A DNA stretch of 64,000 nucleotides, taken from sequence record PV805638.1. One strand, given 5' to 3'. Positions within the stretch are counted from its first letter, which is position 1; the number at the start of each line of letters is the position of its first letter. Shown piece by piece: positions 3,239 to 62,747 of this stretch. The position numbers and the translations under genes were made by a program. Source of the stretch: a phage. Under the pieces are notes generated by a model. It worked only from the letters and a program-made list of their open reading frames with translations, had not been told where the DNA came from and did not search any database.

Positions 3239-3263
3239 GACTTAAACAAACCGGAGCCAGGAA

Positions 3264-3961: not shown

Positions 3962-3995
3962 TTAGTAATTCCATTAACTTTAGGAGAGTAAGTAA

Positions 3996-5048
3996 ATGGC
4001 GAGCATTGACTCCTTGACTGTATGTAATACACGTCAAGCCCGTAACTTTATTATCCGTGCCTTGCAAGCAGGTAACGTACCGTTCCTGACTTCATCACCG
4101 GGTATGGGTAAGTCTGCAATTATTCGTTCTATTGCAGAAGAATTTGGTATGAAGCTGATTGACCATCGTTTGTCTACTTCTGCCCCGGAAGACTTATCTG
4201 GTCTACCATTCCGTAATGGTGACCGTGCAGAGTTTATCCCTTTCGCTGACTTATTCCCTATCGAGGGTGACGAAGTACCAGAAGGTTATAATGGCTGGCT
4301 CCTGTTCCTTGATGAGTTCAACTCAGCTAAAAAGGAAGTAGTAGCTGCTGCATACAAACTGATTCTAGACCGTATGACCGGACAGAAAAAACTTCACCCT
4401 AATGTGATGATTATCTGTGCCGGTAACAAAGCCACTGACCGAGCCATAGTTAACCCGCTGGGTACTGCAATGCAGTCCCGTGTTGTCCACTTCGAAATGG
4501 AACTCGACTTCGACATCTTTGTTGAAGACGTAATGATTCCTCAAGAATGGGATGAGCGTCTGGTTGCATTCTTACATGCTAACCCTGGTTATCTGCATGA
4601 CTTCGACCCTGCCCACAAGAACAAAACATTCTGTTGCCCTCGTACCTGGGACTTTGTTAACAAAGACCTCAAGAACCGACCAGAAGGTGCTTTGCCTGAT
4701 GAAGATTCTATCTACTATGCTGGACACGTTACTGCCGGTAAAGCTACAGAGTTTGTTCAGTTCACTCAGGTATACAATCGTATGATTACGATTGAGAAGG
4801 TAGTCAAAGACCCATTAGGCTGTGCACTACCGGAAGATAATAACCTGTGTTGGGCTACTGTTAACCATCTGGCTAACAAAACTACTGAAGATAACTTCGC
4901 TGATGTTCTTCAGTACATTGAACGCTTTAAAACGTTCACCCATAAGATTCTGTACTTCCGTACAGTAGGCAAAGCATTACCAGAAATTCAGGCTACCCCT
5001 GAATGGCGTAAGGCTGCTGCCAATATCTCTCGTTACATTCACGGATAA
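3996..5048 (+). CDS. MoxR-like AAA+ ATPase
   Basis: Walker A 'SPGMGKSAII' and Walker B 'LLFLDEFNSA'. Confidence 0.7.
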   Translation: MASIDSLTVCNTRQARNFIIRALQAGNVPFLTSSPGMGKSAIIRSIAEEFGMKLIDHRLSTSAPEDLSGLPFRNGDRAEFIPFADLFPIEGDEVPEGYNGWLLFLDEFNSAKKEVVAAAYKLILDRMTGQKKLHPNVMIICAGNKATDRAIVNPLGTAMQSRVVHFEMELDFDIFVEDVMIPQEWDERLVAFLHANPGYLHDFDPAHKNKTFCCPRTWDFVNKDLKNRPEGALPDEDSIYYAGHVTAGKATEFVQFTQVYNRMITIEKVVKDPLGCALPEDNNLCWATVNHLANKTTEDNFADVLQYIERFKTFTHKILYFRTVGKALPEIQATPEWRKAAANISRYIHG

Positions 5049-28682: not shown

Positions 28683-28714
28683 AAGCCCCTCTTTTGAGGG
28701 GCTTTCTTATTTTA
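28683..28714. terminator. Bidirectional terminator between convergent genes
   Basis: aagcccctc-tttt-gaggggctt hairpin with T-rich tract on the plus side and a U-rich tract in the minus-strand transcript. Confidence 0.6.
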
Positions 28715-39991: not shown

Positions 39992-40041
39992 ACTTATATC
40001 GTATATAGGTAACTTACTCTACAGTAAGCCAGTTAAAGAAA

Positions 40042-40064
40042 AAAGCCCCGTAGGGCTTTTATTA
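40042..40064. terminator. Hairpin terminator between a late virion gene and the vRNAP gene
   Basis: aaagccc-cgta-gggcttt hairpin flanked by A- and T-runs. Confidence 0.5.
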
Positions 40065-40067
40065 GTA

Positions 40068-42032: not shown

Positions 42033-42044
42033 GATGGTTTCCTA

Positions 42045-42509
42045 TTAACGAGTTAGTTTATTGGCTGCAATGTAAGCATCAGCCGAAGACTGGTCACGGT
42101 TTTCTGCTGTAGCACGGCTACGAGCACGGTCTTCCAGTGCAGTGTTATAAGACTTAATCTGATTATTCAAGTTAGTGTTAGTAACACTCTTAGCAAAATT
42201 CAGCTGGTCTTTGGCTAACTTGTTAGCCTGGAAACCACTATAGATATTAGCTAAGGAACCAAGTGCACCCAGTCCTAGTTGGAAGGTAGGAATGTTCATG
42301 CCTAACTGATTAGCTGAACCAGATAAGAAAGAGGTAGGGGTAGTTAATCCTGTACCTGCATTCATACCAATAGCTGCACCCGGATTGTAGTTCATAGCTG
42401 GGGTATTAAAGTTTTGATTGTTATTAGACATCCAAGACATAGCAGCTGGCTGTGGGGTTTGGTTGCCCGTTAAGAATGACAAATCCATGGGGATTCTCCT
42501 GTTAAACAA
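42045..42509 (-). CDS. Virion structural protein
   Basis: 154-aa ORF in the late operon, Gly/Asn-rich. Confidence 0.35.
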   Translation of the reverse strand: MFNRRIPMDLSFLTGNQTPQPAAMSWMSNNNQNFNTPAMNYNPGAAIGMNAGTGLTTPTSFLSGSANQLGMNIPTFQLGLGALGSLANIYSGFQANKLAKDQLNFAKSVTNTNLNNQIKSYNTALEDRARSRATAENRDQSSADAYIAANKLTR

Positions 42510-45153: not shown

Positions 45154-45154
45154 A

Positions 45155-45997
45155 TTAATTCAGCCCGTTGTTAGACTTCAGCTTGGACAAAATGGTATCA
45201 ATACTTGCGTTAGTGAATCCATTAGGTGGGTTCAAGCCTTCATCAATAGTCTTCTGTGTAATCCATGCATCAGTAAACAACTTAGATGCTTTAACTTCTG
45301 CATCACGTTGGTAAGAAGTAATCTGTTGAGAGTACAACTCTTTCTGCTTACCTACGGAACCAGTAACAGTAGCCCCATCACTTCGGGTATCAAGTGTTTG
45401 TGCACGCTGTGCCTCAGTCTGCTCAGTAATTAGTTTAAGCTGTTGAGGTAACATCTGATCAGCATTAAACAATGCAGCACAGTATGTCTCAGACTCAGTA
45501 GCAATTTTCATCTTAGTGAGGGCATATTCACTCTTAGCAGACAGTGCCTGAATCTTAGCCAGTACAAACTGTGCCTTAGAGGATGCCAATTGAACACGTG
45601 CAGTAACTGCCTGAATCTGTGCCATAGCAGCAGCCCAGTATGCCTGGTCACGACCAAGTAAGAACTGAACAGCATTACTCATGCATGATTCCATCATGGC
45701 AATATATGCCTTGGTGTATTCACCACCGGTAATACGGTTAGCTTTAAACTCAGCTTTAAGATGGTTGTGTGCGGATTCCATTAATGCATCAAACGTACCA
45801 CTACCACCTACTTCACGGGTAGTAAGTGATTCGTTAGTTATTTTGCTAATATCACCAAAGATGGGAGAGTCATCCCCACCAGGGATATCCCATTCGGGAC
45901 CAGACATATCAATATCAGGGAGGGTAAAGTCATCACCCTTAGTTAACTCTTCTAGGAGTCGGTTAGCTTCTACCTCAGCAGAACAAGACATAATCAT
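45155..45997 (-). CDS. Virion structural protein
   Basis: 280-aa ORF in the late operon. Confidence 0.35.
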
Positions 45998-46067
45998 TCC
46001 TCTCGGTTCAAAAAGAAACGGCCCACGGAGTTACCCCAGTGAGCCGTGTTGAACTGTAGCTTATACG

Positions 46068-46709
46068 TTAATCGTTCAGGCTACCAGCAGCAATCTGTGC
46101 TTGAGCCAGTTGAGCCAATTCTGCTTCAGTCAGCGGAGGCAATACTTCAATGGAGAACTCACGTGCTTCTGTTGCACGGATATCTGGTAAGCCATTCTTA
46201 CCTTTACGAGTCGTAATGTTGATGAACTTACGCTCTTTAAGGAACTCGTAGATACAGTACGGAATATGATAACCATTGTCGGTAACTTCACCGAATGGAA
46301 CAAACTTACGCACAGTACCCATATATTCGTTAGCTACGGTGATAATCTCACCCGGCAGGTCTTTCTTCTTAGGATCAAGGTTCTGGATACGTACACGAAT
46401 CAGTCGAGTCTGTTCTGCACGAATCTTCTGACCCAGGGTCATCTTCTTAACACCAGCTTCTTGTTTTTCACCCAAAGGATTAACAGCAGCTTCTTTTACT
46501 TCTGGTTCATCTTTTGCTTGTGCAGCTTCAATCTTCTCACGGAGTTTCTCAACGGAGATGTTGTTAGAGAACTTAATATTCATCAACGTTGCACGTTGCT
46601 TAAGAACTTCAAGTTCGCTAGGCATTGCAATATCGTTAACGGTATCTTCGTTGCCCTGTACGTCCAGTTCTACGCCAGTGGTCGGTTTATCGTTAATGCT
46701 CATGTTCAT
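46068..46709 (-). CDS. Virion structural protein
   Basis: 213-aa ORF directly downstream of the capsid gene. Confidence 0.35.
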   Translation of the reverse strand: MNMSINDKPTTGVELDVQGNEDTVNDIAMPSELEVLKQRATLMNIKFSNNISVEKLREKIEAAQAKDEPEVKEAAVNPLGEKQEAGVKKMTLGQKIRAEQTRLIRVRIQNLDPKKKDLPGEIITVANEYMGTVRKFVPFGEVTDNGYHIPYCIYEFLKERKFINITTRKGKNGLPDIRATEAREFSIEVLPPLTEAELAQLAQAQIAAGSLND

Positions 46710-46776
46710 ATTTCCTGTGGTTCAACTAGTTTTATTAAGAGGGGGACACTAGTCCCCCTTATTTTATTTAGGACTA

Positions 46777-47979
46777 TTACAGAGGAGCAACAGTCTTAAT
46801 CAGAGCCAGACGTTCTGGGCGTTTAACCAGGATACCGTAGTACCACTTGATGGAACTGAAGCCAGTCTCACCATACGGATCATTACGGTCAGCAGTTTCA
46901 CGACCAGGCATCTTAGTCATGATGGAGAACTTAACAGACTTACCATCAGTCTGGAAGCCAATGGTAGAGAAGGAGTCATCACCAACTACCAGCATCGGGA
47001 ATACGTCGTAGTGTTCCTGACCACTAACCATAGATGAACGGTAACCAGGGTTAGTAGAGACTTGAGCACCAGCACCTGCCCAATGCAGCATCTCAGGAAC
47101 CTGGATAATACGGAACTTGTCGATACAACCAATCTCACCATTCATCAGAGTACCAGCATCAGCATAGTGCTGAACCTCGACAAATGCTTTGTTACCGAAC
47201 AGGTCTTTCATCGCTTTCAGTTCTGGAACCAGTTCAGAACCAACGTACATTACACGAGTACCACCAAGTACTTTGGTATCAGTAAGTTTAGAACCAGTGA
47301 TGATAGTAGTCTGGGTCGGAGTACGGTTCTCAGTAAGAATCTGGTCAAGACGCATCAGGTTCTTATAAGAAACTACAGACGGGGTAAGACCTTCACCAGT
47401 GATGGTAGCATCAGAGGTAGCAGCACCTGCATACAGTACAGTACCAGCAGCAGCCAACAGGTCTTTCTGGAGAACAGCTTCAGTCAGCTGTACAGCACCG
47501 TTCATCAGTTCACGAGACAGGTGTTCTTTCAGTTGGTCATCAGAATCAAAGTCCAGGGACTCTTGGGTAAATTCATAGAAGAAACCGAACTTATGAATGG
47601 AACCTTCACGGGACAGACGAGTAAAGCCTACACGGTTAACACGACCACCGTTCTCTGTCAGCAGAGGCAGTTTAGAAGTGATGTTACCAACGTCTCGGGA
47701 AGAACCATACAGGTTACCATTAACGATGGTAGCACCATTAGCATCAATACCCTGGTCGTTGATGTTCTTATCGTCAAGCAGTGGAACGTATTCGTACACC
47801 TTAACAGTCTTACCGTAGTTCTTCGGCATGTTAATGGTGTTAGCCAGTGGCATGAAGTACTGGTCTTTACGGGACTGAATAATAGCTTTCTTCAGCCAGT
47901 AATAGGTATTCATCTGGTCGGAACCAGAACCATCAATGCTAGATTTCTGGCCGTCAATTGGGGCGTTATAGTTTAACAT
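46777..47979 (-). CDS. Major capsid protein candidate (N4 gp56-like)
   Basis: 400 aa, matching N4 MCP size and position between scaffold-like and downstream structural genes. Confidence 0.55.
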
Positions 47980-47995
47980 ATCATCTTATTCCTGT

Positions 47996-49216
47996 TTAAA
48001 GACTACCCGGTACTGGGAGTTTAGCGAAATCTTCATCACTCATAGCGAGTGGGTTTACAATAGGTGTTGCTTTACGTGTAGCAGCCCGATTAAGGGAAGC
48101 TGCTTTAGCTTGCTCACTGTTAGCCAGAGTCTGCTTAGGTTGTGCTACACGCACTACCGGCTGAACCACTGGTTTAACTGCTTGTACCGGTTCTGGCTTA
48201 GCCACTCGGTTAAATGCCCCTTGTTGTGCAAGGAGGTTACCGACGTGGTTATAAGCCTGAATGAACGGAGTACCTACCGGAATCTGGCCTAACATCTGAA
48301 GACGGTTCACTTCGTTTGCAATGGTGTCATAAATGCCATTCTCACGTTGTTCGTGAATAGTCTGAAGTAGGCCACGATTCTGGTAAAGAGCTTCTTTACT
48401 GGCAGCATCCCATGTCGAGCCGATAACACCTAATGTAGCTTGTCCTTCTTGAGTAGACTTTAAGTCGTCAATTTCGGTTGCAAAATCTGCTTCGGTGTCG
48501 GTAACACGGTGATTGCCACCCTGGTAGTTAATTTCTTCATCTGGATTAAAGTCCAGAGGATCTGTACCAGAGTCTTTGAGCAACTTCTTAATGGCTTCAG
48601 GATTCTTTTTATCCAGGTCAATAAGGAAAGAAAGTTTATCCTCATCCATCAAACCGTTGTTCTGTAACATCAGCATTACCTTACGGTAAGGCTTTAGTTC
48701 TTGCATCTTACGAGTATAGTTAGCACCCATCTGCATCAGGCTAATGGCCTCCTCCGGTGAACGGGGAGTAATCACTTTGCCGTTAGCTTTAAAAGGAGCC
48801 ATCAACTTCTCGTAACCTTCTTTATAGTTGAAGTCAGCAGGCAGACCTTCAGACTGTTTGCCTTCTTCTTTCTGTTCCTGGCCTGGTTCAGTAGTAGAAG
48901 GTTCAGCTTTAGTAATCGGCTCGCCGTTACTATCAACTTCTGTGTCAACAACTTTATCATCAACTTTATCAGAAGTTAAAGAATTTGCTGAATCTTCTTC
49001 GTCTGGTTCGGCTTCAGGGGAGGTTTCTTCAGTTGGTAGGTCTTCAACAGCAGGGGTGTCAACTTCTTCTTCAGGAGTCTGTACGCCGTTGGTTTCTGGG
49101 TTGTTCTGAGTGGAAGTATCTTCCTCAGCGATAATTGCTGGGGCTTCCATATTCAGAATCTCATCATCCGACATTGCGAGAATGTCGGAAGCTGTGGTTG
49201 CAGCTTCCGTAGTCAT
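47996..49216 (-). CDS. Scaffold-like protein with highly acidic N-terminal region
   Basis: 406 aa; Glu/Asp/Thr/Pro-rich low-complexity N-terminus; between portal and capsid genes. Confidence 0.35.
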   Translation of the reverse strand: MTTEAATTASDILAMSDDEILNMEAPAIIAEEDTSTQNNPETNGVQTPEEEVDTPAVEDLPTEETSPEAEPDEEDSANSLTSDKVDDKVVDTEVDSNGEPITKAEPSTTEPGQEQKEEGKQSEGLPADFNYKEGYEKLMAPFKANGKVITPRSPEEAISLMQMGANYTRKMQELKPYRKVMLMLQNNGLMDEDKLSFLIDLDKKNPEAIKKLLKDSGTDPLDFNPDEEINYQGGNHRVTDTEADFATEIDDLKSTQEGQATLGVIGSTWDAASKEALYQNRGLLQTIHEQRENGIYDTIANEVNRLQMLGQIPVGTPFIQAYNHVGNLLAQQGAFNRVAKPEPVQAVKPVVQPVVRVAQPKQTLANSEQAKAASLNRAATRKATPIVNPLAMSDEDFAKLPVPGSL

Positions 49217-49235
49217 AGGAAATATCTCCGGTTAA

Positions 49236-49580
49236 TTATTCGTCTTCAGGTTCAGCACGAACTGCGTCGAGTTCTTCTTCTACCTGTAGAATAACGTCAG
49301 CTTCGTTTTCGCCCATACGAATGGCGAGGTCGAGCCAACGACGTAAGTGACCAGCAGCTTGAGCCATGTTCAATGCATCTGCACGGTTATTAGGTTCAAG
49401 CAGTGGGTCACCAGACTCTTGCACGTAACGTGCACAATCTTCCGTACAGAACTGGCGAAGAATTACTTTACGGAACAATGGATTCTCTAGAAGTTTACGT
49501 ACATCTTCTGCATGTGCAACTGCACCTTTAGCAGCTTCTAGTCGATGTTCCAGCCCAGCGATTGTTGATTCTTTACTCAT
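49236..49580 (-). CDS. Hypothetical virion-associated protein
   Basis: 114-aa ORF between portal and scaffold-like genes. Confidence 0.35.
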   Translation of the reverse strand: MSKESTIAGLEHRLEAAKGAVAHAEDVRKLLENPLFRKVILRQFCTEDCARYVQESGDPLLEPNNRADALNMAQAAGHLRRWLDLAIRMGENEADVILQVEEELDAVRAEPEDE

Positions 49581-49593
49581 GTGAAGGTCTGCC

Positions 49594-51864
49594 TTACAGG
49601 TTCATGCCAAGAGCCGATGCTGGGTCTTGGCTAGGGTCATAGTATTGGGAACTAAGTGAATAAGACGGGTCTTGCTGAGCAGCTAAATCCCGTTCTGGTA
49701 TAGAGTTCACGTTAGTCAAAGTATTATATCCAACAGCTGCAGATATGTTGGGGGTAGTTTCCCCTTCTTTAATAGGTGTTGTCAATGCCTTAGTTATTTG
49801 AAGGTTCTGGTTTCCTTGGGATTGTGCTTTTTGTTTTTCCATATCACGAGCATGTTTAGTACCAGATTCCTGTTCCAGATAATCCAGGTCTTTAAGGTCA
49901 CCACTAGAAGCAGCCTCTTTAGCTTTAGCCATATTGAGTGCAATCTTACTTTGCAACTCTTCATTCTCAAGCTGTGCTTTCTGAATTGCCAATTGCTTAA
50001 GCTGTTCTTCCATAGGGTCTGGTTGTGGTTGCCAAGTACGTAACTCATGAGCCAGGTCAGGCATACGTTTAAGCTCTGCAATCTTAGCTACGAGGGATAA
50101 TGTAATAGTCTGGTCAACCGTATTACCCAATGTTTGAACCATGAAGCTCAAGTCCTGGGATTTCTGGTTATCAATTTCAGCAGTGTTAATATCAACCTCA
50201 ATGTCGAAGTTACCTTTAAGATCTTCACGGTTAATCTCTACATACTGCTCGTTAGTAATACGTACTACTTCCTTCTCAGATAAGAACACAGCATTCATTG
50301 CACAAATCTTAGTACCAATGTCTGCCATACCCTTAGCTAATCGACGAAGGATTGCCATCTCACGCTTGGATGCTGCATCAAGTGCACCACGAATACCAGC
50401 AGCCACATCTCCGTATGCTGAACCAGTTACACCACCGGAGAATGCTTTAACACCAGTTAATGATTCAGCTTCCTGGTTTTGCATCTGGGTCATTATTATT
50501 GCCGACTGAGGTAACTCAGGGAACTTATGTTCCATAATGGCTTGACTAGGATTACCCTGCATTGGGTTGTATTCATAGTCTTGCCCATCGTCATAACGAC
50601 GTCGGTTTAGTGTATCCAACATCCCTTTAGGATAACCACGCTGACCATTTGCACTTCGACCTAACAGGTCAATCATCCCACGCATAGTTGCACCAAGAAT
50701 TGCTTGGTTATCCCCTAATAGTTCAGCATCAGCTTCACCAAAGAGTTCACGTTTACGAGGCATGTAAGGAACAACTACTAAAGGTAATTTGCCGTCAGGG
50801 AATGGGTTCCTCTCCATACGAATAAGGGTAGAACCAATCCAGGTAGCAACAATAGGTTCCAGAGAACCATCATCATTGATGTCGTAGAATCCCCAGTATT
50901 CATAAGCAACAACTTTCTTACGTAGTGCATCCTTAAACTGAAAGTCACTAGGGGTTTTACTTTCATGGTCTGGGTCAGTCATTGGGCTAGAACTTTCCCA
51001 GTCAATCTTATCTAAATTGTGGTAACGGTCTTTGTTCTTCATGAGGTCTGCTTTGCATGTCTCAAATGAGATAACTGCATACAGAGCCTTATCCAAATCA
51101 CCGTTACAGCTTGGGTCAATAACTACGTTATTGGGGTTAAGCATTTCAACGGTAGGTCTGTTAACCAGTGCCTTCTCTACCTCTACTTCAGTAACCCCTG
51201 TCTGGATTGCATACGTAGCTTCTCCAGTTTCATTGAAGTAGTTAACAGCTTCCTTAATATCTTCAGGCATTGTTTCATCATACTCACGAGGATTCTCTGC
51301 CTGAAGCTGTAAAGCCTGTTGAAGAACATCTGCCTGTTCTTGGTTCTCAATTGGATACAACTGGAAGACTGGTGTTTCTGTTTTAATCTTAACGGTCTTA
51401 CGTTCCCAACCAATACGAGCAATACCAGTACCGTCATCTACGACACTGTGTACGTAATCATCTACCAGTTTTACTTTATTAAGCTGTGTACGGAATTGGT
51501 AGTTAAGAACTAATTCATTCTGACGTGCAGCTAACTCATCTTCAAAAGTAACCGGGGTTACTTTAAAGAGTTTGTTAGATGAGAGGAATGGCTCGGATAA
51601 TGGAGCATATCGCCACTCTGCCTGACGGCGAACCAGTCTGGGCTGGACTTGTGATCGTCCTTTAACCTTTGGGGGTTTAGCTTTACCTTTAACTTCCATC
51701 AGGTCATTCCACTCACGAATCTGTGCCATAATCGCATCGTGAGCAGGTTTAGCTGATTCCAAATCACCCTTCAGTAATTGGATACTTGGTTCCTTCTTCC
51801 AGTCCGTTAACTTCTCTGATTGAGCCGGGTCTGGTAAAGGCTTAAAAGTGTCTTGGTGTTCCAT
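49594..51864 (-). CDS. Portal protein candidate (N4 gp59-like)
   Basis: 756 aa, size and position as for the N4 portal. Confidence 0.55.
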
Positions 51865-51872
51865 AGTTAATC

Positions 51873-52373
51873 CTATTCAAAAAGTTTACGGTCAGCCTGA
51901 ATTTGCTTACCCAACTCAATTAGTTGGTTGTCACGGAGTCTAACAGTTGCCCGGAGTTCTTCAACCAAACGTCTGCCTTCTTCAAGACTGTTGTCGAGTC
52001 TGGCTGCATGGCTTGCAAGACTTCTGCACTCAAGGGTTCCGGCTTCGGCTTGACGTTTATATACCGATGCTCGTCTTTCAGACTGTTGCATCCGGCTGTC
52101 GTAATCACTGCTAACGCGAGCAAGCTCGCTTGCGTAATTACTCTCAGCCGTCTGCAACCGGGAAGTAAGTAACCCGACTTCATAACTATGGTTTCTTTGG
52201 AGAGCATTGTATTTGTCCTGTAGTTTTTGTGTTGCCTTCTGGTCTTCAACCTTTTGAGCATCCCATCTCTTTTGGACAGTAGACTGTCCATTGGAATTGC
52301 CCCAAAAGTAAATGGTGGCCCCGAGGACCACCACCAGAAGATAAGGCCAACCTTTAGAGATTAGCATCTTCAT
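51873..52373 (-). CDS. i-spanin (Rz-like)
   Basis: N-terminal TM '[16 protein letters not shown]' followed by a coiled-coil-like periplasmic domain. Start placed at an internal Met to limit overlap with the endolysin. Confidence 0.5.
51920..52183 (-). CDS. o-spanin (Rz1-like lipoprotein) embedded in the i-spanin gene
   Basis: '[32 protein letters not shown]' signal peptide with lipobox, then a Pro-rich tail; alternate frame inside the Rz-like gene. Confidence 0.55.
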   Translation of the reverse strand: MKSGYLLPGCRRLRVITQASLLALAVITTAGCNSLKDEHRYINVKPKPEPLSAEVLQAMQPDSTTVLKKADVWLKNSGQLLDSVTTN

Positions 52374-52989
52374 TACATGCCTCCAGTGGTACATTACCGA
52401 TTCGGTTAGCTACCCAACCATACGTAAAGTCTGGCATGTTCAATGAGGTGTAGTGGTTCAATTGTTTAGCATCAAGCAACTTAATCATTACCTGACATGC
52501 TGCAACTTTGCCTCGTTTTTTCTGTAATGCTTTATATGCATTAACAGTACCTGCACCGACTTTACCATCAACTTGTATTTTAGGGTAGTCTTTGCCATCA
52601 CGGGACATTTCATTAAGGGATTGCTGCAACCACTTAGCTGGTCTGGTTACACCGGTATTAACACCAGCATCAACCAGTTTGTGTGTTACAGCAGGAGATA
52701 TATCAGCGAAGGCTACGAAGTTAGGCTTAATAACGTAGTCATCAATGTATATCTCAGCAGCCATCTCTTTAGATAAACCCTTCATGGAACCATCCCAACC
52801 ATACTCAGTAGCCAGAACTTCTTTATGAGACTTAGCTACTGAATGAGTAATACCATGATTAGTTTCCCCGCCTGGGTCACGAGGATTGTTTACGTATCCC
52901 CCTTCCATATAGAACACTGCCCCCAGAATAGCAGCGATAACTCCTCCCACCGCACCCCCTTTTGCAGCAAGTTTCTGTTTAGCTTTCAT
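52354..52989 (-). CDS. Endolysin: GH108-like N-acetylmuramidase with N-terminal SAR-like segment
   Basis: 'EGGYVNNPRDPGGETNHGIT' GH108 signature; Gly/Ala-rich weakly hydrophobic N-terminus 'GGAVGGVIAAILGAVFY'. Confidence 0.65.
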   Translation of the reverse strand: MKAKQKLAAKGGAVGGVIAAILGAVFYMEGGYVNNPRDPGGETNHGITHSVAKSHKEVLATEYGWDGSMKGLSKEMAAEIYIDDYVIKPNFVAFADISPAVTHKLVDAGVNTGVTRPAKWLQQSLNEMSRDGKDYPKIQVDGKVGAGTVNAYKALQKKRGKVAACQVMIKLLDAKQLNHYTSLNMPDFTYGWVANRIGNVPLEACNEDANL

Positions 52990-53239
52990 GAGAATCTTCC
53001 TTTGGATGGAATCGTATTAGTCTACCTACAATGTTTAAGGCAAATAGTGCGATTGTAATACTGGAACCATGTGGAATATCTTCAAGGATGTGACGTGGTA
53101 GTCCCGTCAGCATTGGTTGGATAATATCTACTGTAGAAAACAGAATTACTCCAAATGCACTAATCTGAACAGATGCCCACTTCCAGGACCTCTTCCAGTT
53201 AGGAACTAGCCCTATTTTTCTTTTTAGCTTGCGAACCAT
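52979..53239 (-). CDS. Putative holin/pinholin (two TM helices)
   Basis: Two hydrophobic helices ('VQISAFGVILFSTVDII', 'ITIALFALNIVGRLI'); start placed at internal 'MVRKLKRK'. Confidence 0.35.
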   Translation of the reverse strand: MVRKLKRKIGLVPNWKRSWKWASVQISAFGVILFSTVDIIQPMLTGLPRHILEDIPHGSSITIALFALNIVGRLIRFHPKEDSHES

Positions 53240-53556
53240 GCGAATATCTCCCGTCTTGCAGCAGCCAATACACCAATGATTGCACCTGCCCCAGCCCATA
53301 CCCACTTGCCAAAAATTCCAGCACCTGCAACCTTATGTTTAATGGTGATGAACTCTTCGATGGTAGGTTCAGACTTAGTGATGCTCTCCTCTACCCGTTT
53401 AAGTCGGGTACTAAGGTCACCCATAGACTCACTTAGTTTTTTAATAGACTCTTCCATTTTCTCCCTATCCCTCGATTCACGAGTTTGGTTTTCGAAAATG
53501 TTTCTTAGTCTCTCTTCGAGTCTGGCTAGAGTTACGTTATCTGGTTCATTTCCCAT
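53224..53556 (-). CDS. Membrane-anchored coiled-coil protein (possible lysis regulator)
   Basis: Charged coiled-coil N-terminus and C-terminal TM 'GIFGKWVWAGAGAIIGVLAA'. Confidence 0.3.
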   Translation of the reverse strand: MGNEPDNVTLARLEERLRNIFENQTRESRDREKMEESIKKLSESMGDLSTRLKRVEESITKSEPTIEEFITIKHKVAGAGIFGKWVWAGAGAIIGVLAAARREIFAWFAS

Positions 53557-53803
53557 AGGGATTTTCTCAGGTTAGTTAAGTCGTAATTGACTAAAACAGT
53601 CTACCTAATGACTTGTTTTTGGTACAACAAAAACCCACCCCCCGCAACCTAGTTGGGCTGGTTAAAGCCTGAAATATGGAACAGCAGTCACCAAAACAAC
53701 AAAGACCATACTTAGGGTTGAGACAATCATATGGGTGGCTATATGCGTATAATATTTTTAGGGAGCAAGTGTATACTTGCTCCCCAGAGTTATCTCAGAG
53801 TCA

Positions 53804-56338
53804 TCAGAACACATAATCCAGTTGCGTAAGCTGCTTCAACTGAATCTGCACGGTACTATCCAGAGTTACTGCCGGAACAGTTAAGCCAGAAACACCGATT
53901 GCAAAGTCCGCAATGAACCCGGTAGTAGGATTCTTTACTATATCCGCCCCAGTACCCCCAGAACCTGTACTTGCAAACTGAGTCTGCTTAGTACCATAAG
54001 CATTCCCTGTACCCGCAATAACTAGTTGCCATACACCCCTGCCGAGCGTACCTGGAATACTCAAGCTACCTGAACCAGCAGCCCGAAATATCTTGGTATT
54101 CTCATAGAACATACACTCTTGCAACGTGCAGGTACTTCTCTGCCCGGTACTCACAACCTGATTACCCCGGAAGCTAAAGTTAGTCTGGTCATTCAGAACG
54201 AAGTCACACAGCTTAGCCTCTTGCACCCGCACGTTCATATCCAGAGTGTTGGCATGAGCAATCAGGGACTTAGGAATACCTTGCACCTTATATCCAACAG
54301 CACGATAACTTAAATCCAGAGAGTTGTACTGCTTCACGGAGTTGCCAATCAGCTTAACCGTCTGTCCCCGATATACCTGGGATGCGCTAGCCCCAGCGTT
54401 AACTATAATAGCCTCGGTTGTGTTATTGACAGTCTGACACTTAAGTACAACCGTATTGTGACTGATATCGATATCCTGGTACACCTGGTATGAGCTATCC
54501 CCTGCTCCGGTCGATATAGCTACCCCATCAAAAGCTCTAAGCTCGCAATAGTTGTTGTGAATCTTAACAAAGGGGTTCGGATACGTCGCTGCCGTAGCCT
54601 CCCCGCCGCCACCTACATCGATGCTGCGAGTATACTTTCCACCTATAAGCAGTCCGGAAGTAGCACTAGCAGGAATATCTCTGGAGCGCACATAGTTGTT
54701 GCTAACGATGAGGTTGTATGGTTCGTAGTTTGGATTCCAACCTGCCCCACATTTAGCATATATACCAACTACGCCGTGCTCAAGGCACATGTTCTCCGTG
54801 ATGATTACCTGCCCACCACCGTGGAAGTCAATACACTTACGACGACAGTTCTTAATCTGGTTTTTAGCAACAACTACGTTCCTGATTCTTCGGTTACGCG
54901 CATGCGAAATACCGTACCCAGGGTCGTAGCTATCGTTCAGAACATCATCACCATAAGGGTGTCCAATATTCTGGATATCGTTGGACTCATAGTTTAGTCT
55001 GTAGCCGGACAGTACGTAGATACCTGCACTGTAGCAATCCTTGATGGTACAGCCCATAACCATAACACCGTCAGGTACATCCGTGTCATTCGTATAATCC
55101 GTGCTGCCGTAGGTAGTCGCAATGTTACGGATGCCGATACCAATGCCACCAAAGTTAAAACCGGATACGTGCGAGTTCAGAATAAGGATGCCACGGCAGC
55201 CGCGTTGCACCTTGATACCATTAGCCCAGCTTCCGATGTAACCGCCAAGGAAAGTCCCCCAGGTACTGCGCCACCCATCCAACTGATTACCCGCGTCATC
55301 ATAGTTAGGGAACTGTCCAGCTACACCAGCATAAGCACCAGACGTGTACGCACTGGAGTCAACGGAGTTATTAGGACCTGTAAACAGTGCTGTATCGTAT
55401 CCGAAACGAGCCTCACCTTTCTCTGCATAACCAGTAGGCACATCTATAGCAGGGAACTTGTTAGGGCCACGCACAGTCAGCGATACAGTCACGTTCCGGC
55501 AATTTACAAGGGCAAGTCCGTCCAGCCCATGCGTATTCACAATTATAGTGCCGTTGGAGATACGAATACCTTCCTTATTTACCAGTGCCAGACACGGACT
55601 GTAGTTACGTGTACCGTCGCTGAAGTCAGGCTCAGTAGGGTACGTAGAAGCCAATGCAGGATTTTTTCGAACTAAATATGTCTTTCCTCCTAAATCAATA
55701 TCTCCAGTGGCGGCGTCGAAACATGCCTGCACTGCCAACGTATCGTCGGCAACGCCATCGCCAACCGCCCCCCATCCACGTGGATCGCCATTATCACGCC
55801 AGCGAGCCATTTGTAGTTCGGGGTATTTTGTTGCACCTTCAGGGTCTGAAATCTGTCCTCGTAGCACCACATCCCCAACACTCACCCAAGCACCCAGACC
55901 AACACCACCAGAAGTTTTAGGGGTTGAGTCGGCAGGAACTACTTTAGGCAATACACCATCCCATCGATACTTACCATCGGTAAAGACAACCAGTTCATTC
56001 TTGGTATTAACTGTTACACCAGTATCAAATGAACCAGGTAAGGTTACATACTCTTCACGAGCAACAGCAAGTGCACCTAAGTCCACACTACCAGCAGAGT
56101 GTACTAATACCCCAGATGGACTAAGACTTGCAGCAGTAACCCCTGAACCAATGTCAGCAGGTAAGGAATAAGCACGCTGTGTCTCCTTGTCGTAGATGAC
56201 TTTGTAACCACTTAGTACAGCACCCACTGAGAAGTAAACAACCTCAGATTGCTTAACTCCAAAGTGACGGGCTACTGCTTGTTTATTGGTTAAGATTCCA
56301 GTTGAACCTTTACCACCTTGAGAGAACATTTCGTTCAT
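53804..56338 (-). CDS. Tailspike with pectate-lyase-like beta-helix depolymerase domain
   Basis: 'GWGAVGDGVADDTLAVQACFDAA' motif typical of pectate-lyase-3 type tailspikes; 844 aa. Confidence 0.6.
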   Translation of the reverse strand: MNEMFSQGGKGSTGILTNKQAVARHFGVKQSEVVYFSVGAVLSGYKVIYDKETQRAYSLPADIGSGVTAASLSPSGVLVHSAGSVDLGALAVAREEYVTLPGSFDTGVTVNTKNELVVFTDGKYRWDGVLPKVVPADSTPKTSGGVGLGAWVSVGDVVLRGQISDPEGATKYPELQMARWRDNGDPRGWGAVGDGVADDTLAVQACFDAATGDIDLGGKTYLVRKNPALASTYPTEPDFSDGTRNYSPCLALVNKEGIRISNGTIIVNTHGLDGLALVNCRNVTVSLTVRGPNKFPAIDVPTGYAEKGEARFGYDTALFTGPNNSVDSSAYTSGAYAGVAGQFPNYDDAGNQLDGWRSTWGTFLGGYIGSWANGIKVQRGCRGILILNSHVSGFNFGGIGIGIRNIATTYGSTDYTNDTDVPDGVMVMGCTIKDCYSAGIYVLSGYRLNYESNDIQNIGHPYGDDVLNDSYDPGYGISHARNRRIRNVVVAKNQIKNCRRKCIDFHGGGQVIITENMCLEHGVVGIYAKCGAGWNPNYEPYNLIVSNNYVRSRDIPASATSGLLIGGKYTRSIDVGGGGEATAATYPNPFVKIHNNYCELRAFDGVAISTGAGDSSYQVYQDIDISHNTVVLKCQTVNNTTEAIIVNAGASASQVYRGQTVKLIGNSVKQYNSLDLSYRAVGYKVQGIPKSLIAHANTLDMNVRVQEAKLCDFVLNDQTNFSFRGNQVVSTGQRSTCTLQECMFYENTKIFRAAGSGSLSIPGTLGRGVWQLVIAGTGNAYGTKQTQFASTGSGGTGADIVKNPTTGFIADFAIGVSGLTVPAVTLDSTVQIQLKQLTQLDYVF

Positions 56339-56387
56339 ATAAACCTCATTGTTTTTCTAGGTAAGCCCCCAACTACGGGGGCTTTGA

Positions 56388-59306
56388 TTAAAGCAGTGTG
56401 TATTCCACTGTAGATGGAAGGGGGACACCTACTGCTACAGGTCTGTTTACTGTAATTACACCAGCAGAGCAAGAAGCAGTATCGTTTGCAGTAGCTGGGT
56501 CAACTACCCATGAGCGAACTCTATACGACTTAGTTGTGTCTGCATTAGGTATAGTTAATGTTCCAGAAGTGGCCCCAATAGCAACAGGAACACTTACTAC
56601 CCCATTGGTAGCAGGTGTGCCTCTATTAGAACGATAGTAATTATAAGAATTGGAAGGCTTCAATATTTCCTCAATACCAGTTAATCCGGAATTTTGCACT
56701 ACAACATCACTAGAACCAGTTAGGTACAACGGATTTGCCAAAGTACATGAATCAATAACAATACCCCCACCAGTATGGTTAAAAATTGCTATACCCGACC
56801 ACCCACCGACAAACGTAGACTGGCCGATGTATACAGGCCCAACATGTTGGCCAGCAATGTTAATACCAATGTTATTATTGAGAGGGTTGGCATTATGCAA
56901 ATTACAGTGCAAACCAGTAATCGATTTCTGTTGTTGGATTTGGTTAGCGTTTAAAGAGACTGCAAAAAATTGCTCTGTGGACTCACCATCGCCAGCTATC
57001 CATGAATCTGACAGGTTAAATCCACCGTTAACGTTAATAATAGCCACGGCATTCTTTCGAATGTAATCCAAATCCAGATTACTCATCTGCAAGTCCAGGC
57101 AGTCATCAACATAGATGCCATAATCTACGGAAATACACATAGTTTCCCCATCAATAACGATGGCTTCACTACGAGATCCTGAACTCTGGTCAGGACTCCA
57201 CGCATACACCCTAGGCTGGATGCGAATGCCAAACGTGTTACCCAATGTAGAATAATGATCACGGCGGAAATGGCATCCCGTGATATTGATAGAAACGTTT
57301 TGCCCCCATAGATGTAACCCCATACGGCAGCTACTAGTAGTGCAGTTACGCAACGTAGAATGCCACAACCCCTGTAGTTGCATTCCTATTTCAAACACCT
57401 CAGCACAAACACCCTGGATATCGAAACCGTAAATTTGCTGTTCTGCCTCGGCAGTGGATTCAATATCTGTACCAATCCCTATGCCAGTGCCATTCCCCTG
57501 CAAGCGGAAATTGTATAAATAACGGCCAGATATCCCGCCTCCATGCATCAAAACTAACAGACCTTTACCGAGATCAGTGTAGGTTTTAAGACACGAGTTA
57601 ATACCCTCGCCTCTTAGATTAACAAATGGCTTGAGCATTATAGATTTTGTTACCAGGTAGCCTATGCCCTGATTACCTGCACTTCCGGTAGATTTAGGTA
57701 TAAATACCTCACCACCCCCAAGTGCATAAACAGCATCAATAGCCGCCTGTATTGCGTCGGAACTGTCCGTAATGCCAGTTGGGTCTGCACCAAAACTAAT
57801 AATATTTACGCTTACAGAAATAGCTTTTTTTAACGACTGATTAACAGCCCCAGGTAAATCGATTTTACCGGAAACGGTATCAAACCCTTCATCACTGCTA
57901 AGGAGCTGTCGCAGTCCTTTTTGGTATACGGATGACCACGCAACGGCTGCAATACCACCTGTAGATGCCGGAGTTGATTTAGCCGGAACAGTTTTCGGGA
58001 AAGTGTCATTCCACACATAACACTGTCCACCAGAAATATGCCAAACCGCATCCGTTTTACTATTTACTGTTGCACCTTCTTCAAAGCTACCATCAACAAG
58101 AGTTAAACCGGCCTCAGCAAGACTGCGACGCCATAGTTCTCTGGTATCCTGTTGTTGGTAGGTATCTGGCAGAGTAACAGTAATATTCCCAGGAGAATAA
58201 GTTAACTGCCCATTGGAAACAGTGTTGATATAAACATTAGCAGGAAGAGCAGGAAGACCATAAATCTTTTGTGCTACTACATCATAAATAACCTTCATCC
58301 CATTTAGATACTGGGTAGTATTAGTACTCAAGATAACTTCATTCTCATGAACATTAGCAGAACGAGCTATTTCCTGAATGGTACGGTCAGACATAACCAG
58401 GGTAGTAGACTCACCACCAATAGTTACAATCAAACGATCGTTGGTAGCCAGAGGCTCCGTTAAAAGGATACGCTGGTTAGCTGCATCGACTGTATAGGAT
58501 TTATCAACCAAACCTGCATAGTAGCGTTCGCCATTCTTGTAGATGGCTGGCACAGATTCAAACGTATACGGAACAGCAATTACTTGCTCACCCCCCGAAG
58601 CATACCCACCGTTGTATAGCCAGTTAATCTGAACCCAGTCATTTACGTTAGGGTTATCTGGAACAGCAGGAGTACCGGTAAGGAACAGATGTACTTCATC
58701 ACCAGGTTCCAATGGTTGAGCCAGAGTAACAGTTAGTGAAGCTGCATCGTAAGTAAAACCATAACCAACTAAGTTGGTATAGCCATCAACAACAATCATC
58801 GGTACACCAACCGTACCAACAGGCACTGGGATAGTAGTTTCCCCCCCAATAGCAGAACCATTATTATACGTATATGGGATGTATGGAGTGGATGCTTTAT
58901 CATCACCACCATCTCCGCCACTGTCTGAATTAGAAGTGGCAACCAAAATCCAGGAACCAGTAGCAGACGAGTCATCAGGAATGACACCTGTACGGTCACC
59001 ATCTACATACAGGTAATCTGTAACAACTCGTTTATTGGTATTATCAAAACCATACAGACGTACATAGGATGCACTGGTAGGCATGGCCTTCAGTTCAGCT
59101 TCTGATTGAACACCTAGTACCATTCCATATTTATTCAAGAAATCGTAAATGAGTTTCAGGTTACCCAAGTTACAGTAGACAGTACGAACCACATGATAAG
59201 CATTACCAAGTAGTGCATCTACCATTGGATCATTAGAAGTATTCTGGCAGTAAGGATTGGTCCAATCCTGATTTGCATCAAAGGGGGTATGTGCGTTCAT
59301 CGCCAT
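56388..59306 (-). CDS. Second tailspike with pectate-lyase-like depolymerase domain
   Basis: 'FGADPTGITDSSDAIQAAIDAV' motif; 972 aa. Confidence 0.6.
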   Translation of the reverse strand: MAMNAHTPFDANQDWTNPYCQNTSNDPMVDALLGNAYHVVRTVYCNLGNLKLIYDFLNKYGMVLGVQSEAELKAMPTSASYVRLYGFDNTNKRVVTDYLYVDGDRTGVIPDDSSATGSWILVATSNSDSGGDGGDDKASTPYIPYTYNNGSAIGGETTIPVPVGTVGVPMIVVDGYTNLVGYGFTYDAASLTVTLAQPLEPGDEVHLFLTGTPAVPDNPNVNDWVQINWLYNGGYASGGEQVIAVPYTFESVPAIYKNGERYYAGLVDKSYTVDAANQRILLTEPLATNDRLIVTIGGESTTLVMSDRTIQEIARSANVHENEVILSTNTTQYLNGMKVIYDVVAQKIYGLPALPANVYINTVSNGQLTYSPGNITVTLPDTYQQQDTRELWRRSLAEAGLTLVDGSFEEGATVNSKTDAVWHISGGQCYVWNDTFPKTVPAKSTPASTGGIAAVAWSSVYQKGLRQLLSSDEGFDTVSGKIDLPGAVNQSLKKAISVSVNIISFGADPTGITDSSDAIQAAIDAVYALGGGEVFIPKSTGSAGNQGIGYLVTKSIMLKPFVNLRGEGINSCLKTYTDLGKGLLVLMHGGGISGRYLYNFRLQGNGTGIGIGTDIESTAEAEQQIYGFDIQGVCAEVFEIGMQLQGLWHSTLRNCTTSSCRMGLHLWGQNVSINITGCHFRRDHYSTLGNTFGIRIQPRVYAWSPDQSSGSRSEAIVIDGETMCISVDYGIYVDDCLDLQMSNLDLDYIRKNAVAIINVNGGFNLSDSWIAGDGESTEQFFAVSLNANQIQQQKSITGLHCNLHNANPLNNNIGINIAGQHVGPVYIGQSTFVGGWSGIAIFNHTGGGIVIDSCTLANPLYLTGSSDVVVQNSGLTGIEEILKPSNSYNYYRSNRGTPATNGVVSVPVAIGATSGTLTIPNADTTKSYRVRSWVVDPATANDTASCSAGVITVNRPVAVGVPLPSTVEYTLL

Positions 59307-60007
59307 CCTCGTTGTTCAAATTTAGTTTCGGTAATTGAAATACTTCCATTAGCCAGGTCGTAATCAACAACCTCACCACAGATGCTTTCATACGTTTGCA
59401 GATACTCTGCTGCTTTAGCGTTAGCTTCAGGAGTATTCAAACCAGTGTGGTAACGATAACCCACCCAGTTATGAAGTGCCGTCATTAGCGTATCAGCTAA
59501 ATCAACTTCCTGTTCTTCATCACCCGTAAGTACTGGGTGCTTAGCTTGATACGTTACGTTAAGTGCCTCGAAGTGTCGAGGTCTCATACACTGAATAGTA
59601 TCAGGCCGTGGAGTGAATATAGCACGGGGGTCTGAGTCGTCGTTCAGTCTACGTCGATTCCCAGAGTTATCAAACACATTTAAGATTTTAATAACATCAT
59701 CCTGGAAAGGCTTCATGAACCCATCCATGATATAAGGATATTGAACCTCAAGGGTAGGCTTAGTAAATTTGGAGTAAGCATATTTGGAATGAAGGGGGTA
59801 ATCAGTACGTCCTTCCTTCATCTCCACAATGCAGCTATTTGTCTTAAGAGGGAAACGACTATGCAGTCGTACCAGTCCTTCATTAATAGCTGCCAGTATC
59901 TCCGGCTTACTATCTGGTTCAATATCCAGTCTGTCATCCGTGACTGCACCAGTACCCTTCAAGGTACTTAGTGCCAAGCCACGATATACTTCCGATAATT
60001 TCTGCAT
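59297..60007 (-). CDS. Virion/tail-associated protein
   Basis: 236-aa ORF between tailspike and terminase genes. Confidence 0.35.
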   Translation of the reverse strand: MQKLSEVYRGLALSTLKGTGAVTDDRLDIEPDSKPEILAAINEGLVRLHSRFPLKTNSCIVEMKEGRTDYPLHSKYAYSKFTKPTLEVQYPYIMDGFMKPFQDDVIKILNVFDNSGNRRRLNDDSDPRAIFTPRPDTIQCMRPRHFEALNVTYQAKHPVLTGDEEQEVDLADTLMTALHNWVGYRYHTGLNTPEANAKAAEYLQTYESICGEVVDYDLANGSISITETKFEQRGWR

Positions 60008-60013
60008 GGTTCC

Positions 60014-61624
60014 TCACACAATGTATGAACGTAGTGGGTTAACACTATCATCTTCTTCCTCATCCCACATCGGGTCACCCTTGTTATCCACCAGAGTCAT
60101 GCCTGCTTGTGGTTTCCAAGGATTGAGATAACCCAGCATGGAGATAGTATCAATACAGTCATCCTTACCTTTTATTCCATTAATGGTAGCTAGTTTAATC
60201 TGGCCCATGAACAGACCCATAATAGTTGTATCTCTCAACTCTTCCGGAAAGTACATCTTACCAGCTTTGAACCATGGAACTACCAGGTTAAAGCGTGACA
60301 GTTTAGAGGTTACAGGACGGATGCCAGGCTTACCACCCTCAGAGGATGCAAAGTTAAAGAAGACATTACGGTTAATCATTTCTTTCTGAAGGAGTGAAAT
60401 GAATCCACCTTGCTGTCCTGTAATTTCGACACCAACGTTTTGTGGCTGGTATTCCTGAACCAGACGGAAGAGGTCGTCGAAGTTCTTATCCATAAGCTGA
60501 CGATTAGCCACACCATCAACCCAGAACCAATCTCCATTAGAACTATAAGCCCAAACTGATATGACGCTGTAGTCACTGGTCTGTTTCTCCGAGGTAGCAA
60601 AGTCAGTTGTAATGTAATAGTTGTAGCAGGACTTCATCTTTAACAGTTGCTGTCTGCTGTACCATTTAATCTCACTATCCTGAACAAGACGTTCATCTTC
60701 AGAACTAATACGAAGCATAAGTTCCTGGTAGAAACCAGCCAACTTACCGGTCTTAACTGCCATGTCGTATTGAGCTTTGATGTAGTCATACGAGAAACGG
60801 TCATCCCATGCACCCTGAAACTCTTCCCTACTACATGGGAACTTCTCACACACGGGCCATACGTTGACATCCCATGCACCGGACTCTACTGCTTCAATGA
60901 TGATGTCTTCCTTATTAAAGGGAGTACCATTGAAGATTACTTTACGACGTGTCGGGTCAAGAGCATGGTTCACACCCTTATAGACGGTATCCTTAATAGC
61001 TTCCATACTTGTCTTAGAATTAGCATCACCATCACTAATCAGGTCATCCAGTACACAAAGTGTTGGACGCTTACCATATATCTTCGTACCACGAAGACCG
61101 GTCTTAGCACCGAATAACTTAACACCCAGTCGATGTCCTTCTGCATTACGAAACTCTAACAGGTTATCTGTAAAAATAGCTTCGGGTATCCACTGTTGAA
61201 GGAACTCACTATTCTTATATCGGAACTCAATGTTCTTACGTGCAGACTTAGCACCGTTATCCATTGAGTCTGATACGTAAATCATTCCTTCTACCTTACC
61301 TAAACTTGGTAAGTGTCCAAACACTGCCAAGAACAAAGTAAAGTATTCCATGAACACAGCAGTCTTACCTGCACCACGGAAGCACAGATTAACTACATAC
61401 TGGTTCGGGGTAATCATCTTATCCAACATCTTCAGGTGAACTGGGGGTGTTTTGTTGGATTCACCTTCTTTGCCATTAACCAACTTAATAAAGTTGGCAA
61501 AGGTAAGAGCAAACTGACTAGGAACATAGTTAGAAGAATTAAGGTGGGAGTAGTCCACCTGGTCTAGCCATTCATCTAGTTCCTGCTTAATTAACTCAGA
61601 CATCTGTAATGTCCTCATCTGCAC
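60014..61624 (-). CDS. Terminase large subunit
   Basis: Walker A 'RGAGKTAVF', Walker B 'LCVLDDLISDGD'; 536 aa. Confidence 0.75.
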   Translation of the reverse strand: MQMRTLQMSELIKQELDEWLDQVDYSHLNSSNYVPSQFALTFANFIKLVNGKEGESNKTPPVHLKMLDKMITPNQYVVNLCFRGAGKTAVFMEYFTLFLAVFGHLPSLGKVEGMIYVSDSMDNGAKSARKNIEFRYKNSEFLQQWIPEAIFTDNLLEFRNAEGHRLGVKLFGAKTGLRGTKIYGKRPTLCVLDDLISDGDANSKTSMEAIKDTVYKGVNHALDPTRRKVIFNGTPFNKEDIIIEAVESGAWDVNVWPVCEKFPCSREEFQGAWDDRFSYDYIKAQYDMAVKTGKLAGFYQELMLRISSEDERLVQDSEIKWYSRQQLLKMKSCYNYYITTDFATSEKQTSDYSVISVWAYSSNGDWFWVDGVANRQLMDKNFDDLFRLVQEYQPQNVGVEITGQQGGFISLLQKEMINRNVFFNFASSEGGKPGIRPVTSKLSRFNLVVPWFKAGKMYFPEELRDTTIMGLFMGQIKLATINGIKGKDDCIDTISMLGYLNPWKPQAGMTLVDNKGDPMWDEEEDDSVNPLRSYIV

Positions 61625-62285
61625 GTACTAGTTTAGAACCAGCAATCTCTTTAGTAGGTACACCACTATTGATTGCATTAATTTGCTGTTCAGCTAATGC
61701 AGCAAGTGTTGCTTTGAGGTCAGTCAACCCAGAGTTCTCCCTCAAGTCCAGATTGATATTCGTTACCTGGTCTTTCGGTTTAGCTAAATGGGTAAGGATA
61801 GAGTTGGCTGCATCACATCTTACTTTCTCACTTACTGCTGTAGTCATCAGTTCAACCTGAACATTGATTGCCTTCTGATAATTATCTTGGTTCACAATCC
61901 ACACTGGAACCAAACTTTGTTCCATGATGAGGTTAACTAACTTACCCCTGTGGTAGGCAGAGACATAAGCACTAATATCTTTCTCACTGGTTCCTCGTGC
62001 TATAAGTTCTGCTTGTCGGTTAGGGAATGTTTTGAAGTAGGCTTCCTTATTTGAGTAGCCCATATGTTTGTAAGTTACATACTGAACTGCATTCATGTAG
62101 TCCTGTGTCTTAAACTTACCTTCCTTCATAACACCAGAGTAAGAGATGAAGTTTTCACGAAATGCTTCAGCAACCAGTTGGTCTTGGGTTATGTTGTTAA
62201 TTGTGTCTACCAACTCCTGGCTTACACTGTTCTTGAAGTTAGCAGGTAAGGCATTAATGATCTGCTGCTTAGTTAGCTCTCTCAT
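61596..62285 (-). CDS. Putative terminase small subunit / packaging protein
   Basis: 229-aa ORF immediately upstream of and overlapping the large terminase gene; assigned by position. Confidence 0.35.
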   Translation of the reverse strand: MRELTKQQIINALPANFKNSVSQELVDTINNITQDQLVAEAFRENFISYSGVMKEGKFKTQDYMNAVQYVTYKHMGYSNKEAYFKTFPNRQAELIARGTSEKDISAYVSAYHRGKLVNLIMEQSLVPVWIVNQDNYQKAINVQVELMTTAVSEKVRCDAANSILTHLAKPKDQVTNINLDLRENSGLTDLKATLAALAEQQINAINSGVPTKEIAGSKLVRADEDITDV

Positions 62286-62456
62286 ACTTATCTCTCTACA
62301 AAGTTATGTCTATTAACGAAGATTCTTTTCTTGGGGTGGGATACCCCTTGAAGAAACTCTAACACACAGTTACACTTTAGTCATGATATAGAAAAAGTTC
62401 ATGATACTAAATAGTATGTAATGTTCCGATGACCCTATTCCCAAAAGGAGTAACCT

Positions 62457-62747
62457 TTGAGAATCTATATGAGAGTCCAAGACTCCGAAGATAAATACTC
62501 AGAGATAGACCACACCAAAGCTGGCTTTATGGCTGGTGATATAATCCTTACCCATGACGAAGATACATTCCATGAATTAGCTGGGATGATGCTATTAGAG
62601 AACCGTCCTGGTGTTAAAGTCTTAGAACCGCAAGAAACTTACTCTTTAGAAAAGTCTATTCCATCTCTTGTGTTCTTTACAAAATTACCTCATAGTGTCT
62701 CCATCAAACGAAGCAAAGATAGCGTTCGGATGACGGTGATGATGTGA
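62457..62747 (+). CDS. Small protein, member 1 of a tandem paralog family
   Basis: TTG start with AAGGAG RBS; contains 'DTFHELAGMMLL' family motif. Confidence 0.35.
   Translation: MRIYMRVQDSEDKYSEIDHTKAGFMAGDIILTHDEDTFHELAGMMLLENRPGVKVLEPQETYSLEKSIPSLVFFTKLPHSVSIKRSKDSVRMTVMM

Follow-up and report, generated by a model that had tools for sequence, protein, structure and literature searches.

The DNA analysed here is a 64,000-nucleotide (nt) stretch of phage sequence from record PV805638.1, hereafter the window. Nucleotide similarity places it with the N4-like podophages of the G7C group (Gamaleyavirus, Schitoviridae), and the Gamaleyavirus backbone is 95.9% identical to G7C over nt 40000-53600. 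The interval 53804-59306 is occupied by two minus-strand open reading frames (ORFs) with a spacer of 49 nt between them: tailspike A at 53804..56338 (844 amino acids, aa) and tailspike B at 56388..59306 (972 aa when counted from the first ATG). All domains and stem-loops described below lie on the same strand. A first-pass annotation had proposed two different tailspikes of the depolymerase type at this locus, and the two large proteins fill the interval exactly.

A and B are genuine genes and not chance ORFs because they match PHROG tail spike families with E values down to 0, match solved tailspike structures with E values of 1e-85 to 1e-153 and have hundreds of homologues. Each has a Shine-Dalgarno sequence and a start context resembling those of G7C. 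The gene order is portal, Rz/Rz1, muramidase, holin, gp63, A, B, gp67-type structural protein and large terminase, which is the order in G7C. A thus lies in the gp63.1 slot and B in the gp66 slot, with the lysis cassette (gp60-63) on one side of the pair and gp67/large terminase on the other.

Anchors and receptor-binding modules

Comparison with the N-terminal anchors of G7C-type tailspikes had been suggested in the first-pass annotation, and the likeness is found in both proteins. In A, residues 1-170 (55829..56338) form a gp63.1-type anchor. Identity to G7C gp63.1 is 71% over residues 1-174, and beyond residue ~174 any similarity to that protein is absent. The G7C gp63.1 structure 4qnl is matched by residues 1-165 (E 1e-71), and the N-terminus also matches CBA120 TSP1 (4oj5, E 4e-85) and B2 Gp48 (9d84_A, E 6.5e-65) of the Gp48/Gp49 complex, the structure of which has been solved (PMC11654681). 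The Pfam domain Tail_spike_N (PF18668) is found at residues 91-156 (nt 55871-56068, E 5e-24). In B, residues 1-465 (57912..59306) comprise a gp66-type virion anchor with branching domains of the XD type, which align almost continuously with G7C gp66 up to residue ~465 and belong to phrog_12242 (E 5e-267). This anchor matches Moo19 gp82 (9d80_D, E 1e-153) and B2 Gp49 (9d83_D, E 5e-129), and it contains PF18668 at residues 405-460 (nt 57927-58094).

The two anchors share a homologous segment of ~170 residues (A 8-170 against B 297-474, 30% identity, E 1e-19) which ends in PF18668. The original statement that A and B differ outside their beta-helix motifs thus does not hold for this segment.

The C-terminal half of B (aa 474-972, 56391..57887) is a module of the Sf6 endorhamnosidase type, built up by a beta-helix and a C-terminal beta-sandwich, Tailspike_C (PF21519, aa 901-970, E 1.5e-17). 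Pfam domains found in the whole protein are Tail_spike_N, Pect-lyase_RHGA_epim and Tailspike_C, and the beta-helix is marked by PF12708 at residues 500-577, over the cut-off. The stretch 474-970 can be aligned over its entire length with the Sf6 gp14 tailspike (7sg7, 2vbe and 4urr, E ~1e-108 to 4e-108), with 43% identity over 490 columns. The fold of B is taken from this homology to solved structures, which is stronger evidence than a predicted model. The likeness to the Sf6 tailspike (gene 14; PDB 2VBE, 2VBK, 4URR, 7SG7) extends to the catalytic Glu/Asp pair: Sf6 E366 and D399 align with E714 (within nt 57159-57173) and D747 (within nt 57060-57077) of B, in the conserved contexts RSEAI and LDLDY, and the Sf6 mutant with alanine at both positions is deficient in hydrolysis (PMC6116271). 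However, B is not a full-length Sf6-type tailspike because its N-terminus is of the gp66 type. A P22/Sf6-type head-binding N-terminus is absent from B, where residues 1-~110 of Sf6 are without counterpart and the 465-aa gp66 anchor is found instead.

All phage relatives of the B module come from phages of Shigella flexneri, with amino acid identities of 94% in Moonfish, 89% in SFN6B, 49% in Buco and 42-43% in Sf6 itself. In the Drulisvirus SFN6B the module, which is 91% identical to that of B at the nucleotide level, sits on a short KP34-like N-terminus. Moonfish plates on S. flexneri serotype Y and not on 2a2 or laboratory E. coli (PMC12160474). The interpretation that fits B best is an active endorhamnosidase of the Sf6 type with an O-antigen similar to that of S. 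flexneri Y as its target, and cleavage of alpha-1,3 Rha-Rha links is predicted from the S. flexneri hosts of the related modules together with the plating of Moonfish on serotype Y. At 43% identity, the serotype preference of B may differ from that of Sf6.

Among 5.8 billion protein clusters, of which the best 8000 word-sharing candidates were scored, no protein was found that joins a gp66 anchor to an Sf6-type module. The best Sf6-type matches cover 58-62% of B, and those of the gp66 type cover 39-65% and have other C-termini.

The receptor-binding part of A is a different beta-helix. Pfam finds Tail_spike_N and Beta_helix in A, the latter (PF13229) with an E value of 1.5e-10, over the curated cut-off, along with a weak End_N_terminal match at residues 191-229. 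The right-handed parallel beta-helix spans residues ~190-660 (54359..55771), is presumed to be the polysaccharide-cleaving receptor-binding domain and opens with GDGVADDT (aa 193-200, nt 55739-55762). This is one of the two pectate-lyase-like motifs pointed out in the first-pass annotation; the other, GADPTGITDSSDAIQ, opens the module of B (aa 506-520, nt 57747-57791). Both motifs are present as described, and each lies where the rungs of a right-handed parallel beta-helix begin, as indicated by PF13229 for A and by PF12708 for B. Among the homologues of A (n=27), no variation is seen at the motif residues G195, D198, T200 and Q204. Structure prediction had been named as a check on the fold, and the AlphaFold2 model of A, based on 27 homologues, shows the short repeating strands of a beta-helix. 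Its mean predicted local distance difference test (pLDDT) score is 79.7, with values >90 over most of residues 190-470. The remaining residues, 661-844 (53807..54358), form one or more beta-rich C-terminal domains of the receptor-binding module with predicted strands mostly at pLDDT >80, and are conserved across homologues.

No SGNH or lipase match to Pfam was found in A, which has Beta_helix instead. Together with the loss of similarity to gp63.1 after residue ~174, this makes A a different allele of the gp63.1 slot and not an esterase of the G7C type. The structural neighbours of A are epimerases, lyases and glycosidases, all at 9-18% identity. An enzymatic reading of the term pectate lyase was rejected, the similarity being at the level of the fold only. 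Invariant acidic residues, among them D414, D420, D465, D504, E539, E599 and D622 as candidate catalytic acids, are present in the homologues of A, but they cannot be mapped to a hydrolase or lyase mechanism.

Identity to the A module (aa 171-844) is 91% for a tail fibre of T7-like phages of Enterobacter cloacae and 90% for the tailspike of the Salmonella Kuttervirus P46FS4. It is ~70% for Peacock and LS2, T7-like phages of E. coli, and for Ackermannviridae phages of Shigella boydii, and 44% for the Hf4s phage spike. These relatives place the head of A, an uncharacterised beta-helix, in the family of the P46FS4, Enterobacter T7-like and Peacock modules. Both Peacock and Hf4s have E. coli 4s as host, and the presumed receptor is the O22-like O-antigen of that strain (bioRxiv 10.1101/2021.06.09.447823). 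The P46FS4 spike has been typed as TSP1-22 in a study which does not state its receptor (PMC10892097). No receptor for this spike was found in the literature that would indicate the substrate of A, and Peacock, LS2 and P46FS4 are not mentioned in PMC10408124.

The A module occurs behind N-termini of the T7, P22 and gp63.1 types in metagenomic proteins and is also found in genome records of Enterobacter hormaechei, presumably in prophages. The closest full-length relative (P0001; ERZ25038442 NODE_494, 1532-4066) is 89% identical to A, including the gp63.1-type anchor. The backbone of that contig differs from the window in having another lysis cassette (Phage_lysis, Phage_lysozyme and two holin families), and its copy of A lies downstream of an unrelated spike. 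With such a backbone and neighbour, the contig was uninformative as a guide to B. The unit of anchor and module in A may circulate beyond the G7C-like phages. An exact-sequence look-up in public assemblies gave no match to A.

Module exchange at the ends of the anchors

Comparison with G7C by blastn shows that similarity is retained at 52001-53646 (96.5%), 55988-56368 (87%) and 57969-62500 (89%), and lost at 53647-55987 and 56369-57968. The first of the lost segments (53647..55987) corresponds to residues ~118-844 of A with the intergenic DNA on its 3' side, and it is 88-91% identical in nucleotide sequence to Enterobacter T7-like phages and P46FS4. The donor-like similarity begins within or just before PF18668 and stops no more than ~10 nt past each stop codon. 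The replaced segment of A has a GC content of 49%, with a rise at 54001-56000, compared with 42-45% in the backbone and 43-44% in the anchors. This difference is consistent with a fairly recent import of the A module. The Sf6-like module of B has a GC content of 43.7% with no shift from the backbone.

The N4-like phage Moonfish, which has S. flexneri Y as host, carries an Sf6-like module with 94-96% nucleotide identity over window positions 56363-57942. In Moonfish, however, this module is mounted on a gp63.1-type anchor in an ORF of 666 aa, gp66 is reduced to an adaptor, and the phage has a single enzymatic spike. The gp66 homologue of Moonfish has 378 aa and is adaptor-only like B2 Gp49. In the Moonfish record (PQ613263.1) which is circularised, the ORF of the tailspike crosses the record origin and is annotated only as a fragment of 311 aa (gp1). 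The same module can thus be mounted on either scaffold, since it is found on a gp63.1-type anchor in Moonfish and in the gp66 slot here. The junction in Moonfish corresponds to residue ~150 of A and ~455 of B, which is the end of PF18668, and agrees with the conserved 44-nt motif reported where the anchor ends in six phage genera (PMC10408124).

Swaps of the C-terminal portions of the two tailspikes are frequent and documented among relatives of G7C (PMC10408124; bioRxiv 10.1101/542787). The Gamaleyaviruses have two O-antigen-specific receptor-binding proteins (RBPs) which are very open to horizontal transfer, and 16 phages were found to have 11 RBP1 and 7 RBP2 subtypes (PMC10408124). An event of the same kind has given rise to gp63.1A of the G7C relative Alt63, which retains the gp63.1 anchor but has, in place of the C-terminal esterase, a depolymerase that degrades O-polysaccharide (bioRxiv 10.1101/542787). 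The tailspikes of the Kutterviruses (CBA120 TSP1-4, P46FS4 TSP1-22) also have PF18668 and anchor domains of the XD type, and the beta-helix of A is ~90% identical to that of P46FS4, but four spikes are carried on the baseplate of a myovirus in that genus compared with two on a podovirus here.

The locus resembles gp63.1/gp66 of G7C in genome position, gene order, homologous N-terminal anchors and a stem-loop at the same place between the genes. It differs in that a beta-helix is found in A where G7C has an SGNH esterase, which is an O-antigen deacetylase, and an Sf6-type endorhamnosidase module in B in place of the C-terminus of gp66. The stem-loop between the tailspike genes (AAGCCCCCGTAGTTGGGGGCTT, 56363..56384) has an RNA folding energy of -16.9 kcal/mol (z -3.3) and occupies the position of a hairpin annotated in G7C as a 16-nt repeat. 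Another stem-loop is located just 3' of tailspike A (53759..53786, -21.3 kcal/mol, z -5.8). The two hairpins are GC-rich and stable but unlike each other, whereas the equivalents in G7C are an identical 16-nt repeat (CCCCGCTTCGGCGGGG). For the positions of the G7C hairpins, a role in recombination or as terminators has been discussed (bioRxiv 10.1101/542787). Neither hairpin of the window was called in a scan for consensus terminators, and no T-run follows either of them. A third candidate hairpin at 53625-53665 was dropped because its fold was no better than that of shuffled sequences.

A probable branched pair and its alternatives

Very probably, the locus encodes a G7C-like host-recognition module with two trimeric spikes, most likely branched, in which both receptor-binding modules have been recombined in. 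In G7C, gp66 and gp63.1 assemble into a stable complex with two branches, which gp66 anchors to the tail and in which the XD3 domain of gp66 is needed to hold gp63.1 (PMC8825819). The equivalent of XD3 in B would span about residues 300-400. Residues 1-~465 of B would likewise fix the complex to the tail and offer a docking site for A, and the first ~170 residues of A would dock onto B, as suggested by the work on G7C and B2 (PMC8825819, PMC11654681). A branched assembly with two enzymatic heads is most likely because A and B retain both anchor parts. A physical complex of A and B on the tail can be inferred by analogy, given that both partners of the B2 Gp48/Gp49 complex are matched and given the deletion work on G7C. 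The C-terminal half of B would bind and cut rhamnose-containing O-antigen of the S. flexneri Y type at an inter-subunit active site with E714 and D747. The remainder of A would probably bind and degrade another O-polysaccharide, akin to those targeted by the Enterobacter, Salmonella and E. coli 4s phages, and the pair would then be likely to have two glycan specificities. On this reading, both modules were acquired by recombination at or near the PF18668 which ends each anchor. The two-tailspike interpretation of the first-pass annotation is thereby supported, and it is sharpened to a branched pair of the G7C type with one head of the Sf6 endorhamnosidase type.

A more particular history of the pair can be put forward tentatively. 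The Sf6-like module might have been moved from a gp63.1 anchor, as in Moonfish, to the gp66 anchor, freeing the gp63.1 slot for an Enterobacter- or Salmonella-type module of higher GC content. With the Sf6-like module in the gp66 slot, the gp63.1 slot is left for a second specificity. Such a slot swap, if true, would be direct natural proof that the end of PF18668 serves as a universal splice point between two scaffold positions. If in addition both spikes are active, the phage could address two O-antigens that are unrelated to each other and might belong to different genera (Shigella/E. coli together with Enterobacter, Salmonella or O22-like E. coli).

Another explanation, which has some support but appears less likely, is that the spikes, instead of giving two host ranges, both serve one host as in G7C, with one directed at the O-antigen and the other at a second glycan or a modified polymer, and with both needed in each infection. 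Both G7C spikes are reportedly essential on E. coli 4s. A review has proposed a role as processive motors for the spikes of N4-like phages, and the possible use of conserved glycans distinct from the O-antigen by those of the gp66 type (PMC10743462). The infection of S. flexneri Y by Moonfish with one enzymatic spike and a truncated gp66 has also been counted in favour of this explanation, since the basic mechanism then works without a second spike, whose role may be accessory. On the other hand, the relatives of the A and B modules are found in phages of different host genera, and we know of no single host that would be expected to have both the Sf6-type substrate and the target of an Enterobacter- or Salmonella-type spike. 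The spikes of Kutterviruses and Gamaleyaviruses are, moreover, generally each assigned to a separate O-serogroup (PMC10408124).

It is improbable that A is not a depolymerase but a non-catalytic adhesin or an enzyme that modifies polysaccharides on a beta-helix scaffold. Phage tailspikes with a beta-helix are depolymerases in the vast majority of cases. Many Asp, Glu, His and Arg residues are invariant along the helix among the homologues of A, which suggests a conserved active site, and the beta-helix that replaces the C-terminus of gp63.1 in Alt63 does depolymerise O-polysaccharide (bioRxiv 10.1101/542787). It is very improbable that one gene of the pair is a recombination remnant in decay whose product is not assembled into virions: one enzymatic spike suffices in Moonfish and in B2, whose gp66-type Gp49 has only 410 aa, but both ORFs here are intact and of full length with G7C-like Shine-Dalgarno and start contexts, the anchors and the catalytic residues of B are conserved, and the model of A is confidently folded.

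The interval is ordinary for its phage group. The arrangement is well known and highly exchangeable, and judged against the sequences compared here, what is new is the combination of alleles, that is, of anchors with swapped beta-helix modules. The backbone is common by the same comparison and the allele pair uncommon; no phage record in the collection searched spans at least 80% of the tailspike interval. The pair adds one more documented case to the two-tailspike system of Gamaleyavirus without changing the understanding of such systems. It also provides a clear case from nature in which one receptor-binding module, 94-96% identical in nucleotide sequence, is carried on either type of anchor in related phages. 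This is useful for the engineering of host range by module swaps at the PF18668 junction and for the prediction of hosts from tailspike sequences.

Start of B and neighbouring genes

In tailspike B there are in-frame ATG codons at M1 and M3. A GAGG Shine-Dalgarno sequence abuts the first of these and lies 6 nt before the second, which is at 59300 and overlaps the stop codon of the gp67-type gene as ATGA, as annotated in G7C. Because of this spacing and this overlap, the true start of B is probably at 59300, resulting in a protein of 970 aa. The gp67-type gene itself (59297..60007, minus strand) lies upstream of B and overlaps its start. It encodes a virion structural/adaptor protein with the Pfam domain SU10_adaptor, matches phrog_2125 (E 3e-92) and is syntenic with gp67 of G7C.

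On the other side of the tailspikes, a nested pair of ORFs in different frames (51873-52394 and 51920-52291) matches the annotated Rz/Rz1-like spanin genes gp60/gp60' of G7C. Farther away, a minus-strand ORF of 3759 aa at 28712-39991 presumably encodes the N4-type virion RNA polymerase, which fits the assignment to Schitoviridae.

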